Positions 1 through 9,000 of a stretch of 64,000 nucleotides of DNA are shown piece after piece. Each line of letters opens with the position of its first letter. Positions within the stretch are counted from its first letter, which is position 1. Position numbers: made by a program. Location of the stretch: the NCBI RefSeq assembly GCF_988243305.1, contig NZ_OZ547136.1. One strand, written 5' to 3'.

Positions 1-3000
1 CAGTCTCACCTCTTTCACCATTCCCGCCTTGAGGATTGCGCGTAAATCGTGCATAACTCCCTTATGTGCTTTTCACGGGATGGAAGACCATGAAATTTAT
101 TGGGAAGCTGCTTCTTTACATTCTCATCGCTCTGTTAGTGGTGATCGCTGGCCTCTATTTTCTTCTGCAAACCCGCTGGGGAGCAGAACATATCAGCGCA
201 TGGGTTTCCGAGAATAGCGACTATCATCTGGCCTTCGGAGCGATGGATCACCGTTTTTCCGCGCCATCTCATATCGTGCTGGAGAACGTCACGTTTGGTC
301 GTGATGGCCAGCCCGCGACCCTGGTGGCAAAAAGTGTCGACATTGCGCTAAGCAGTCGGCAACTGACCGAACCACGCCATGTCGATACCATCCTGCTGGA
401 AAACGGGACGCTGAATCTCACCGACCAGACCGCGCCGCTACCGTTCAAAGCCGATCGTCTGCAACTGCGTGATATGGCGTTTAATAGCCCGAATAGCGAA
501 TGGAAACTAAGCGCGCAGCGAGTAAATGGCGGCGTGGTTCCGTGGTCACCTGAAGCCGGTAAAGTGCTGGGTACGAAGGCGCAGATTCAGTTTAGTGCCG
601 GATCGCTTTCGCTCAATGATGTTCCTGCCACCAATGTACTGATTGAAGGCAGTATTGATAACGATCGCGTTACGCTGGCTAACCTGGGTGCCGACATCGC
701 CCGCGGGACACTAACCGGAAACGCGCAGCGTAACGCCGACGGCAGCTGGCAAGTGGAAAATCTGCGCATGGCGGATATCCGTCTACAAAGCGAAAAATCG
801 CTAACCGACTTCTTTGCGCCATTACGCTCTGTCCCGTCGTTGCAGATTGGTCGCCTGGAAGTCATCGATGCTCGTTTGCAAGGTCCGGACTGGGCGGTGA
901 CCGACCTCGATCTCAGCTTGCGCAACATGACCTTCAGTAAAGATGACTGGCAGACACAGGAAGGCAAACTGTCGATGAACGCCAGCGAGTTCATTTATGG
1001 TTCGCTGCATTTATTTGACCCGATTATAAACGCGGAATTTTCCCCGCAGGGCGTAGCGCTGCGCCAGTTCACCAGCCGCTGGGAAGGGGGCATGGTCAGA
1101 ACGTCCGGGAACTGGCTGCGCAACGGGAAAACGTTGATCCTTGATGATGCGGCAATTGCCGGGCTGGAATATACCTTGCCGAAAAACTGGCAACAGTTGT
1201 GGATGGAAACGACACCCGGCTGGTTAAACAGCCTGCAACTGAAGAGATTTAGCGCCAGCCGCAATCTGATCATTGATATCGACCCTGACTTCCCGTGGCA
1301 GCTCACCGCGCTCGATGGTTACGGTGCCAACCTGACGCTGGTTACCGATCATAAATGGGGCGTCTGGAGTGGTTCGGCGAATCTGAATGCCGCCGCCGCG
1401 ACATTCAATCGTGTTGATGTTCGTCGCCCATCGCTGGCGCTGACCGCCAACAGCAGCACGGTGAATATCAGCGAACTGAGTGCATTTACTGAAAAAGGCA
1501 TTCTGGAAGCCACCGCCAGTGTTTCACAAACGCCACAACGTCAGACCCATATCAGCCTGAATGGACGCGGTGTGCCGGTGAATATTTTGCAACAGTGGGG
1601 ATGGCCTGAATTACCGTTGACTGGCGACGGCAATATTCAGCTTACCGCCAGCGGCGATATTCAGGCCAATATCCCGCTGAAACCTACGGTTAGCGGGCAA
1701 TTGCATGCCATGAACGCCACAAAGCAGCAAGTGACTCAAACCATGAATGCAGGCGTCGTTTCCAGTGGCGAAGTTACATCGACGGAGCCGGTGCAGTAAA
1801 TACGCGGGCGCTAACGGATATCAACGTTAGCGTCCCCGCTATTACCGCAAAACAGCATACTCACTACACAATAACCATTTCACCGGTTCATCTTCTTCTA
1901 TCGCCGGAAAACGTCCTCCCGGCTCAAGAAAATGGTTATCATGTTGGTCATCATTTACCATCGAAATTTCCCAGCCGAGAACAAACGCTTTTTCCGCCCA
2001 GAAGCGATGATACAGACGCGGCGGCAGGCAAATGCCCTGCCCCGGCTTTAGCACCAGCGTTTCACCAGGTTTCACGGCACGCCGCTGACCATCAACACTC
2101 ACGGTAATAACCCGCTGATCATCACAGAGATTGGCTTCGTTGGCCCAGGCCAACTGCATGCATAAGTCTCCACCGCCCCGATTGAGGATATCTTCCATTT
2201 TGTGGGTGTGAAAATGCCAGGGAGTCTGCTGATCTTGTTGGATCTGCAACATTTTCTCAGCATACGGTTTTGGATATGCCGCCGACCCCAGCGCGCCGTT
2301 GCGCATCGTTAGCAGTGTTAGTCCCGTTTGGTTGAAATCACCACGACCAAAATCGGTGATATCCCAACCGAGCTGTAAGTCGACCACTTCTTGCCAGTTA
2401 TCCCGTTCCCGCTGCAGCCAGTCATCCACCGTAAAATAGGCGAACTCTGGCAAACAAACGCGGAAGGTCTGCGCAATGGCATGTGCTTTATCAATAACAT
2501 AATTAATTTGTGAACGTTTCATTGGCTTCTCCGTTGCGCATAGCAAGCCAGGCAGCGCCACGCATTCCGCTACTGTCGCCGTGCTGTGCTTTTACAATGG
2601 GAGTGGTGAATTGATCGGTGAAAACCAGTGGAGCGACTTCTGCGTTCAGATCGGTGATAAGCAGTTCCACATTCGAAAGCCCGCCGCCGATCACAATCAC
2701 GCCAGGGTCAACAACGTTAACGATGGTTGCCAGCGTGCGGGCAAGCTGTTGGCGAAAACGTGCCACCTGCTGCATGGCACAAGCATCACCACGTTGTGCC
2801 AGGGTGACAATCGCCGCAGGAGTGAGCAAGTTACCAGTCATCTGTTGATAGCGTTCACTAAAACCGCTGCCGGAAACAAACGACTCCACGCAGTTGTGTT
2901 TGCCGCAATAGCAACTGACTGATGGACCATCTTCCTGCTCCATATAGCCTGGCAACGTGATATGACCGCATTCGGCAGCATTTCCCCAGGCCCCTATAAA

Positions 3001-6000: not shown

Positions 6001-9000
6001 CGGCAGGCGAATATAGCGTTTAAGTAGCAAAATGGTGTAGCCCACCAGGAAACCACCCAACATACCGCCAATAAATCCGGTATGGATTTGCCCACAGAGA
6101 AAGCCGACAATCAGGCCCGGGGCAAATCCGGGACGATCGGCAATAGAATAGGCAATTGCCGCGCTAATCAGCGGCACAATCAGCCCCATTCCCCAGCCGC
6201 CAATCTGATTAAGCATCCACGGGATTGTTCCTGTTTTTTCACCAACATCTGTACCGCCAAGAACTTGCCCCAACGCAATACATATCCCGGCGGCCACAAT
6301 AAGGGGTATCATCCACGAGATGCCGGTTAATAAATGTTTTTTAATTTCCTGTGAAACCGGAATTTTATTTTCTTTCATATTAAGATCCCTCCAGTATAAG
6401 GATCATTTATTTCCCAGTGATTTTTCGACCTTTTCAAGAAATTGAACGGGCGATTTAATGACGATCTCTGTCTTTACTCGCACAATGCGTTTATTGGTAA
6501 AACGTTCTTCTCCTTTTATTTTCACATCCACAGCAAGAATCACGACGTCAGCAGCAGAGATCTCTGCCGCCTGTAATTCGTTTTCTGTACCAATGGTTCC
6601 CTGGGTTTCAACTTTAATGGTGTGGCCCAGTGCTTTTGCCCCTTTAATTAACTTTTCACGAGCAATATAGGTGTGAGCAATACCCGCCGTGCAGGCGGCA
6701 ACACAGACAATATTCATGATATACTCCCTGTTATTTAGTAGACATCGGATTGTGCATACTGACTAAAGAGATCAATGATTTTTTGCGGGCTCGTCTCAAC
6801 CAGCAATTGCGCTATGATGTCATCATCTGCAAGCGCGCCCGCGACCTGGGAAAGTAAACGGATATGAGTGGTATTTTGATCTTCAAGACGTACCGCAAAT
6901 AAAATAATACAGCGTACGCTACTGCCATCCAGTGTTTCCCAGGGAATATCCTGCCGGGTACGCCCGATAGCCAGCGTGGTATTAATTACCGCAGAAGATT
7001 TACCATGCGGGATCGCAATATGATTTTCAAAACCAGTCGAGCCTTCCGCTTCGCGCTGCCAGACATCTTTAATAAAGGTTTCCCGACAATCGATCGCACC
7101 ATCTTTTTTGAGAAGATTAGTTAATTCTTCAATCGCCTCCGCTTTATTCGTCGCTTGCATATCTAAAATAACGCGATTCGTATTCAGGATTTTTGTTATG
7201 TCCATTCGTCATACCTCATAAAATTCTGACATTAAATTTCAACGACCCGAGATGTCGCATGATGTAATTTTTCCGTAATCACCATTTCAGTGACCCGCTT
7301 AATATCGGCATCATTAAAAAAAGCGGTAACATAAGCGACCGGCATAGTGACTGTAGGCAAATTAATGGTCGAAATAATCAGTTCGATATTGTCAGGCAAA
7401 ACCTGTGATAAATTCGCTGCTGAAATAACATCAACAATCGTCCATTCAGGAAATGCTCGCAGAATACGGCTTTTCAGTAGATGCGAAGTTCCGATTCCGG
7501 TTGAACAGACCAGTAATACACGTTTACGGGCAATTTGCCGCTCCATCGCAGCCTGAAAATGAACGGTCAGGTAACCTACTTCATCCTCGCTCACTGCATT
7601 CTCACCCCAGGTTTTAAATACCTGATTCACCACATATTGCGTCAACCGCCAGACATCCGCTAATTCTGCTTTAATATCTTCCAGCAATGGATTACGGATA
7701 TGAATGCGATAATTTAGTCGGTTAATCAGCGGCTTAATATGAACCAACAAGCCATCATATAATGCGCTGTCTTCACTAAAATCGCAGTCCACGATGTCAC
7801 TGAATACCGTAATTAAACGCCAGGTAATCAGACGCGCTTCATTGCTGGCCTGCATATGTGAAATAATGCTCACATCTTTTTGTCCATCAATCGCCACACC
7901 TGATGAAATGATATATTGATAAATAAACCAGACTTCATCATCGGGCAATGTATGTGCAATTCGTTGTTCTATCTTATGAATCATCTGACTGGCAACATTA
8001 AAGATATTTTCATCATATTGCCTGGTTTGATCTTCTTCTCTGGATAACGCATTCCCGTGCGTGTTGCGATACATCATAATAAGGATGTGAGTAAAAATGT
8101 TAACGTAATAAGGCTCTCCCAAAGACCAACTTAATTCATTTTCCATATCCAGTAACAATGACTGGACAAATAACACCTCTTCTTCTCCAAAATAATGGAC
8201 TAATGCTTTATAACTTCCGGGATCCAGACGTGAATACACGACACCTTGCGGCTCATTATGGTTAATAATGCCGTTAATCAGTAATGCCATTGCCTGTCGG
8301 ACTTGCCCTTCACTACCTTCAATATGCGTACCACTTGGGCTGCGGATCAATGATAACCCCAACGGCGCAAGCCAGGACTCAATCACTCTCAGGTCATTAA
8401 CAATAGAGGCTCCACTGATAAAATAGCGCTCTGACAATTTACTGATCGACGTTTCATTCGGTGTTTCACTTAATAACTGCGACGCTATTTTAACGCGCCT
8501 GGCATTATTCATTACACCATCAATCTCTTCACATTCTGCTCCCAACAAATGATCAAGATGCAGCAAATCAGTAATATTCTTCGAGTCTAACATCACACCC
8601 GCGCCAGCACGCTTCTCAACGGTTATTCGCCATTGTTCCAGCCATTGCTCAAGTAAACGTAAATCACGTTGAATGGTTTTTTCCGAAACATTTAAATAGC
8701 CGGCAATCGTAACAATAGTCGTATATTCCCTTCGTGGTAAAAGGAATCGTAATAATCTGTTTTGTCGCGAGGTAATCATTTGCATTTTTTACCCTTATCA
8801 CAGATTAAGAAGCCCCATGTGGAAGAGCTTCAGTTGCCATCTCTGAGGGTAAATATAAAGCAGAATAATTTCACAACAATACTAAAATCTGTCCGTAGTC
8901 CGGACATGTATAAAACAAAACGGGGCGGTTAATAGATATTTTTCGGCACAGATCACATTTTCGTGATGAATAATCGTGATCATGCTCGCAAATACGATGG

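Follow-up and report, generated by a model that had tools for sequence, protein, structure and literature searches.

What is the block of sugar genes that lies between yicH and yicI in a 64,000-nucleotide (nt) stretch of contig NZ_OZ547136.1 (NCBI RefSeq assembly GCF_988243305.1; hereafter the window), what might it do, and was it inserted there? We found eight intact, co-oriented open reading frames (ORFs) on the minus strand at 1842-8785, and consider it very probable that this chromosomal unit is the frz operon of the extraintestinal pathogenic Escherichia coli (ExPEC) strain BEN2908, encoding a phosphotransferase system (PTS) of the fructose family, its own regulator and sugar-handling enzymes. 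A first-pass annotation of the window had placed an eight-gene carbohydrate operon at exactly these coordinates, and its gene families were borne out as well. The frz operon is already known and the present window adds nothing to the marker itself; what is added here is a doubt about its insertion, a six-gene core, a candidate operator and an observation on an arginine of the aldolases. The eight genes and the two flanking genes are as follows.

7232..8785, minus strand: gene 1, frzR, PRD-type regulator by its Pfam domains, 517 amino acids (aa).
6735..7205, minus strand: gene 2, PTS enzyme IIA (EIIA) of the fructose/mannitol type, 156 aa; TIGR00848, 127 bits against a cut-off of 103.
6403..6717, minus strand: gene 3, PTS enzyme IIB (EIIB) of the fructose type, 104 aa; TIGR00829, 99 bits against a cut-off of 77.
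5287..6378, minus strand: gene 4, PTS enzyme IIC (EIIC) of the fructose family, 363 aa; TIGR01427, 311 bits against a cut-off of 157.
4424..5275, minus strand: gene 5, ald1, divergent class II aldolase, 283 aa; under all NCBIfam equivalog cut-offs.
3483..4343, minus strand: gene 6, ald2, class II aldolase of the PRK08185 subfamily, 286 aa; NCBIfam NF006042, 524 bits against a cut-off of 405.
2503..3435, minus strand: gene 7, ROK-family sugar kinase, 310 aa, no helix-turn-helix (HTH) domain; overlaps the start of the cupin gene by 20 nt.
1842..2522, minus strand: gene 8, cupin resembling D-lyxose/D-mannose isomerases, 226 aa; NCBIfam NF051472, 271 bits against a cut-off of 350.
90-1799, plus strand: yicH, left flank, convergent with frz.
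9080-11398, minus strand: yicI, right flank; yicJ lies beyond it on the same strand.

The longest ORFs of the last two genes run from 2503 to 3468 and from 1842 to 2561; the RefSeq starts of the identical allele in strain JNEC-KY178 are shorter. The gaps between the genes range from -20 to 80 nt. These short gaps, the one overlap and the one conserved promoter-like region described below are consistent with a single transcript for all eight genes.

Identity with frz was examined by in silico PCR with published primers. The pair frz/F and frz/R, for which an amplicon of 565 bp from frz orf4 has been published (PMC10675333), matched exactly at 5670-5689 and 6215-6234 and gave a product of 565 bp within the EIIC gene. 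The pair frz-FP and frz-RP, with a published amplicon of 843 bp (PMC6238794), matched exactly at 8361-8380 and 7538-7557 and gave 843 bp within frzR. All four primers had zero mismatches and a single site each in the window. In the BEN2908 genome frz is found in region GR27 between yicH and yicI, the region being 7283 bp and the feature 7227 bp long (PMC12928451), and here the stop codons of yicH and yicI lie 7280 bp apart. As primers, slot and size (about 7.28 kb) agree, with no difference of substance from the operon of this avian strain, the match to ExPEC frz proposed earlier can be sharpened; the operon is frz itself and not merely frz-like. Rouquet and co-workers are said to have described frz in 2009 as a fructose-family EIIA, EIIB and EIIC with a Mga-type PTS activator, two class II aldolases of the ketose-bisphosphate type, a ROK kinase and a cupin, and these eight gene types and their order agree with the window. 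The statement that its substrate had not been established also stands, as our literature search found none named in the accessible papers.

Among 5426 complete E. coli genomes, frz-specific DNA was present in 1601 (29.5%) at 98% identity or more, single-copy and chromosomal, the carriers including ST131, IHE3034 and ATCC 25922; five genomes of the collection hold partial matches only. The present allele is 98.2-98.5% identical to the common B2-strain allele and 100% identical to that of JNEC-KY178. With dN/dS values (nonsynonymous over synonymous divergence) of 0.02-0.48 against the B2 allele, the frz genes are under purifying selection. A search of plasmids for frz returned only a mislabelled chromosome and a fragment of frzR on one plasmid, and frz is therefore not plasmid-borne. 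The fragment spans 607 bp at 86250-86856 of the 93 kb plasmid NZ_MN335640.1, with 98.4% identity and no annotated gene beneath it.

Which of the eight genes form the functional unit? We ran a profile of ald1, whose orthologues mark frz-type loci, on one genome per species and searched the resulting 80 loci by tblastn with eleven proteins of the window. Pantoea, Erwinia, Pectobacterium, Brenneria, Sodalis and their kin have the regulator, EIIA, EIIB, EIIC, ald1 and ald2 only, and the same six genes are found in Listeria monocytogenes, Enterococcus, Pediococcus and Lactobacillus. Kinase and cupin are variable: of the two, most Citrobacter loci hold only the cupin, Mangrovibacter and some Brenneria only the kinase, and the cupin is missing from Pantoea, Erwinia and Pectobacterium as well. 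We therefore take the functional unit to be a PTS with two aldolases and no dedicated kinase. EIIC is 94-97% identical in Klebsiella, Citrobacter and Salmonella.

A link between frz and Listeria lmo2133-2138 has been noted earlier (PMC2996996). The cassette lmo2133-lmo2138 and those of Enterococcus, Pediococcus and Lactobacillus have the six genes in the same order as frz, with ald2 52-65% identical, and the Enterococcus cassettes share the palindrome upstream of frzR that is described below. They differ from frz in having neither ROK kinase nor cupin, in a regulator that is only about 29% identical, and in their unrelated genomic sites. The neighbours of these Firmicute cassettes gave no clue to the substrate: in E. 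durans the six-gene cassette stands alone between tuf and rpsJ, among ribosomal and elongation-factor genes, and in Pediococcus the neighbours are an unrelated mannose-type PTS and pyruvate oxidase. A literature search on the Streptococcus Fru2 operon returned nothing usable. In Pediococcus acidilactici the cassette has, some 5 kb away (locus L083, 16677-20573), a GH31 alpha-xylosidase with 50% identity to YicI as well as a YicJ-like transporter; this echo of the enterobacterial yicJI-frz linkage may be coincidence.

The two accessory enzymes of E. coli were compared with characterised families. The ROK kinase carries the motifs DIGGT and CxCGxxxCxE, and among the NCBIfam models it scores best with fructokinase PRK09557 (316 bits, cut-off 443) and next best with NagK and AlsK; it is closest to fructokinases of the Mak type. 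The cupin, whose orthologues bear the Pfam domain Lyx_isomer, matches the structures PDB 3KMH and 3MPB over residues 1-224 (E 6e-65), and the HxH...E and LYH motifs align. These structures are of the D-lyxose isomerase Z5688 of E. coli O157:H7, to which the frz cupin thus compares over the full length and in its metal-binding motifs, while Z5688 is a paralogue at another locus. As the frz cupin scores under the NCBIfam equivalog cut-off, its substrate preference may differ from that of Z5688. A DNA search of E. coli for a Z5688-type paralogue of the frz cupin retrieved frz copies only.

The aldolases are the part of the core that bears most directly on the substrate. They are 33% identical to each other and both match TIGR00167, the ketose-bisphosphate aldolase family, with 260 and 197 bits. 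Both retain the zinc ligands and the catalytic aspartate: ald2 keeps the motifs D-H, TAHG and LHGGS, and D81, H82, H178 and H208 of ald1 are invariant in 13 orthologues. We aligned them with FbaA, GatY, KbaY and YdjI of K-12. At the position of FbaA Arg331, a residue that is said to bind the distal phosphate (work of Qamar and colleagues from 1996, and later structures), FbaA, GatY and KbaY read DPR; ald2 reads DPN, ald1 has no equivalent, and the arginine is missing from YdjI too. The pattern holds widely, with WDPN or WDAN in ald2 of all 75 two-aldolase loci and DPR in ald1 of none. A literature search on Arg331 returned nothing usable, and we know of no reliable rule that gives aldolase specificity from active-site residues.

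YdjI, which RefSeq names octuluronate-1-phosphate aldolase, resembles the Frz aldolases in family, in metal ligands and in lacking the DPR arginine. It differs in sequence (about 31% identity) and in company, as the ydj cluster has the kinase YdjH, dehydrogenases and major facilitator superfamily (MFS) transporters and no PTS. Since both Frz aldolases lack the arginine and the core lacks a kinase, we tentatively favour a direct cleavage of ketose-1-phosphate, as with YdjI, though we would put this somewhat below an even chance. The coupling of a PTS to a class II aldolase is common to frz, to the GatYZ and KbaYZ tagatose-1,6-bisphosphate aldolase systems and to the D-tagatose PTS pathway of enterobacteria and Bacillus; those pathways need a second phosphorylation step. 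Unlike them, Frz lacks both a GatZ/KbaZ-type subunit and a PfkB-type 1-phosphate kinase, in whose place stands a second, catalytic-looking aldolase paralogue, and it is without the arginine for the distal phosphate.

We further wanted to know how the operon may be controlled. FrzR contains the Pfam domains HTH_11 (residues 7-63), Mga HTH (100-169), PRD1 (209-294), PRD2 (324-413) and an EIIB-like domain (422-498); the Pfam scan found neither a CAT domain for RNA binding nor an EIIA domain, and the protein ends at residue 517. His233 in PRD1, His349 in PRD2 and Cys427 in the EIIB-like domain are invariant in 15 orthologues, Firmicutes included. As it has DNA-binding domains and lacks CAT, FrzR would be an activator of the MtlR/LicR/Mga type and not a BglG-type antiterminator, and judged by these domains 'BglG family antiterminator', its name in RefSeq, misleads. 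MtlR, LicR and ManR of Bacillus share with FrzR the HTH, the Mga-like HTH, the two PRDs, the EIIB(Gat)-like domain, and a conserved PRD histidine and an EIIB-domain cysteine in the positions expected; FrzR differs from them in missing the C-terminal EIIA-like domain. In the established scheme for PRD activators, which the invariant residues of FrzR fit, HPr activates and the cognate EII inhibits. The PTS proteins themselves carry the expected phosphorylation motifs in translation, IAIPHGK with His67 in EIIA and AACTAGIAHT with Cys9 in EIIB.

The region upstream of frzR was aligned over six genera (E. coli, Salmonella, Klebsiella, Superficieibacter, Phytobacter and Kosakonia), which brought out the following elements, all conserved in the six.

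8890..8906, no strand assigned: palindrome TGTCC-N7-GGACA, candidate FrzR operator.
8852..8857, minus strand: TATATT, candidate -10 hexamer of the frz promoter, in an invariant TTATATTTA block.
8949-8960, minus strand: invariant AAATGTGATCTG block.
8975-8990, minus strand: CRP-like TGCGA-N6-TCACG.

The palindrome is adjoined by an invariant TTTAGTATTGT, and its pattern has one match in the window where 0.22 would be expected by chance. Beyond the alignment, 61 of the 75 loci having a frzR homologue carry TGTCC-N7/8-GGACA in the 400 bp ahead of the regulator gene, and in nearly all of these it is the only match. The 61 include Pantoea, Pectobacterium and four Enterococcus, in which the regulator is only about 29% identical. 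Wherever the palindrome matches, its half-sites never vary and its centre is free, hence it fits the operator of a dimeric protein better than an RNA stem, and we propose it as a candidate FrzR operator. It presumably differs from the sites of Bacillus MtlR, LicR and ManR. TATATT, a candidate -10 hexamer, lies 32 nt downstream of the palindrome, and its Enterococcus equivalent, TATAGT, lies at 31 nt. The elements at 8949-8990 are candidate CRP sites by their resemblance to the consensus TGTGA-N6-TCACA. An Rfam search of 1700-9200 with E up to 1 found no RNA family and therefore no known riboswitch or antiterminator target. Every frzR homologue is preceded, at a distance of about 70-330 bp, by conserved non-coding blocks, and the CRP-like site is kept within the Enterobacteriaceae.

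From these elements a mechanism can be proposed. FrzR would bind TGTCC-N7-GGACA, which directly precedes a weak -35 region, and activate a single promoter for all eight genes, probably with the assistance of CRP. HPr would activate FrzR at a PRD histidine, His349 or His233, and the Frz EIIA and EIIB would inhibit it at Cys427 when transport of the substrate is absent. EIIA (His67), EIIB (Cys9) and EIIC would import and phosphorylate the sugar, and the two zinc aldolases, possibly as a hetero-oligomer, would split the product into dihydroxyacetone phosphate (DHAP) and an aldehyde. Further, we speculate that the cupin isomerase and the Mak-like ROK kinase of E. coli might handle a free lyxo- or manno-configured aldose, released by the aldolases or taken up separately. 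Taken as a whole, this would make frz not an insertion specific to ExPEC but an old six-gene cassette common to Enterobacterales and Firmicutes, whose fructose-family PTS supplies two aldolases for ketose-1-phosphates under a TGTCC-N7/8-GGACA operator, with an isomerase and a kinase added in E. coli to use the released aldose. We regard this complete picture as improbable.

Several observations weigh against the proposed mechanism. The argument from the arginine concerns a single residue, and other residues could bind the distal phosphate; the C-terminal part of ald1 is only weakly aligned; and PfkA, PfkB or FruK of the host could form the 1,6-bisphosphate, as in the gat and aga pathways. On the side of the control region, 14 of the 75 loci have no exact match to the palindrome, and on the minus strand the palindrome doubles as a terminator-like hairpin. 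A consensus scan for promoters and terminators, which missed the candidate TATATT, returned fewer sites than shuffled sequence and was uninformative.

The strongest competitor follows from the host kinases. The PTS could deliver the phosphate of a ketohexose of the tagatose, psicose or sorbose type, to which PfkA, PfkB or FruK of the host would add a second phosphate. The aldolases would then split the 1,6-bisphosphate into DHAP and glyceraldehyde-3-phosphate, in the manner of the galactitol and N-acetylgalactosamine (GalNAc) pathways. Both aldolases do belong to the ketose-bisphosphate family TIGR00167, and the closest solved structures are fructose-1,6-bisphosphate (FBP) and tagatose-1,6-bisphosphate (TBP) aldolases; it is also general knowledge that the gat and aga pathways depend on host Pfk. 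Further, an evolved E. coli employs FruA and FruK for tagatose (PMC10101011). This route is nevertheless opposed by the lack of the Arg331 equivalent in both paralogues at all 75 loci, where FbaA, GatY and KbaY keep it, by both aldolases scoring under the GatY, KbaY and FBP aldolase (FBA) equivalog cut-offs, and by its giving no obvious need for two aldolases. We consider it possible, though on the doubtful side, and continue to lean towards cleavage of the 1-phosphate.

Was frz inserted? The earlier claim that yicH adjoins yicI in K-12 is correct, as the two stop codons are 52 bp apart in MG1655. In a BLAST comparison with K-12 the homology ends at 1800/1801 and restarts at 9057, leaving 7256 bp here against 27 bp in K-12, with frz downstream of yicJI. 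Each edge of the frz-specific DNA has a hairpin.

1804..1839, no strand assigned: GC-rich hairpin GCGGG-CGCTAACG ... CGTTAGCG-t-CCCGC, between the convergent yicH and cupin stops, left edge.
9035..9065, no strand assigned: hairpin CCGGATACGA ... TCGTATCCGG, directly past the yicI stop, right edge.

The left hairpin is probably a bidirectional terminator, which the consensus terminator scan missed because it has no T run. The right one is common to K-12, where it takes the related form GCCGGGTACG ... CGTACCCGGC.

By one account the ancestors of ExPEC lineages acquired frz horizontally, as an island inserted between yicH and yicI. The presence of frz in only 29.5% of the complete E. coli genomes speaks for it, and among the representatives of Escherichia species the ald1 scan found frz solely in Escherichia sp. 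MOD1-EC7003. The composition is uneven too, with a GC content of about 41-44% over regulator, EIIA, EIIB and upstream region (6400-9000) against about 53% for the rest, EIIC, the aldolases, the kinase and the cupin (1842-6400) ranging over about 52-58%. Salmonella enterica serovar Ituri has the same eight genes upstream of yicJI beside integrase and transposase fragments, which implies one relocation of the operon or more. Finally, the synonymous divergence (dS) from the B2 allele is 0.01-0.03 for the enzyme genes, 0.16-0.18 for EIIA and EIIB and 0.09-0.11 for the flanks, which indicates recombination between E. coli lineages. With both GC and dS uneven, the history of the operon looks mosaic.

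Against an insertion stands the gene order of other genera. At least 10 Citrobacter species show the arrangement yicJ-yicI-frz-(..)-yicH, as do Klebsiella grimontii, K. michiganensis and K. aerogenes, Superficieibacter, Phytobacter ursingii and Escherichia sp., and Mangrovibacter has yicJI-frz. The identities of the frz proteins to those of these genera (64-97%) bracket the 69-92% of the flanking yicH, yicI and yicJ; for K. aerogenes the values are 64-94% for the frz proteins, 71% for yicH, 88% for yicI and 86% for yicJ. Neither E. coli junction showed any mobile-element signature, be it an integrase, an insertion sequence (IS) element or a direct repeat. Moreover, the frz-negative E. coli HS-02 (NZ_CP172818.1; locus L090, 4002-4267) has a frameshifted 266-bp remnant of the frzR 5' end between yicH and yicI, and on its sequence this pseudogene is a deletion scar.

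The word 'inserted' in the first-pass annotation hence holds as a description relative to K-12, and as a history it is doubtful. Because four other genera have the order yicJ-yicI-frz-yicH and HS-02 keeps a remnant of frzR, K-12-type strains are no less likely to have lost the operon than others to have gained it. We hold old residence with repeated loss to be about twice as probable as a recent insertion, and acquisition as an island in ExPEC ancestors to be unlikely. In K. aerogenes the interval between frz and yicH (loci L004/L005, 13503-17671) contains an RpiR-type regulator, a GH4 6-phospho-alpha-glucosidase and a PTS EIICB, and K. grimontii and K. michiganensis have similar extra space there; these additional genes mark the gap between yicI and yicH as a recurrent site for sugar-use genes.

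It might also be that frz is mainly a sensor, which reports an environmental sugar and alters the fim switch and yicJI through FrzR or the PTS phosphate flux, with carbon supply being secondary. Secondary sources report that frz favours fitness under stress and the ON state of the type 1 fimbrial switch: its deletion shifts the fim promoter to OFF, and the mutant is less fit in serum and in stationary phase. They name no growth substrate. This idea is hard to reconcile with four enzyme genes that are intact and under purifying selection, and with two aldolases that travel with the PTS genes across phyla. Nor is there any sign of a second local target for FrzR, the palindrome being single in the 64-kb window, with none upstream of yicJ. 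We judge a primarily sensory role to be quite unlikely.

That frz could be a version of one of the characterised operons gat, aga/kba or fruBKA has a negligible probability, for although the class II aldolase family and a PTS are shared with gat, aga and kba, this identity is ruled out by gene content (no GatZ/KbaZ, AgaS, GatD, FruK or FPr gene), the EII is of the fructose family and split into A, B and C instead of being of the galactitol or mannose type, the NCBIfam scores are too low for GatY (247, cut-off 383) and KbaY (184, cut-off 542), and the actual gat and aga loci of K-12 differ in appearance. A better match to such an operon, which the earlier annotation had named as the finding that would speak against frz, was thus looked for and did not appear.

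Beyond yicJ the window continues with the gene for tRNA-Sec (selC) at 13083-13177, which adjoins yicJ. From about 17600 to 36100, by collinearity with NZ_AP045174.1, follow genes related to type III secretion, namely a SycD-like chaperone, a SipB-like pseudogene, an IpaD/SipD-like protein and the HilA-like regulator eilA, and after these the very large, internally repetitive inverse-autotransporter gene iatC. The stretch from selC to iatC is 94-96% identical to that of a genome whose frz region is 100% identical.

What these findings mean for frz may be considered from its use as well as from its biology. The operon serves as a virulence-associated marker when avian and human extraintestinal E. 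coli are typed, and the gene order common to other genera warns against calling it a pathogen-specific acquisition. The comparative results ease the question of its sugar by giving several handles: a candidate operator and promoter, a minimal six-gene unit and the prediction that a 1-phosphate would be cleaved in preference to a 1,6-bisphosphate. If the reading of frz as an old cassette is true, it points to an unusual, possibly higher-carbon, ketose as the substrate.

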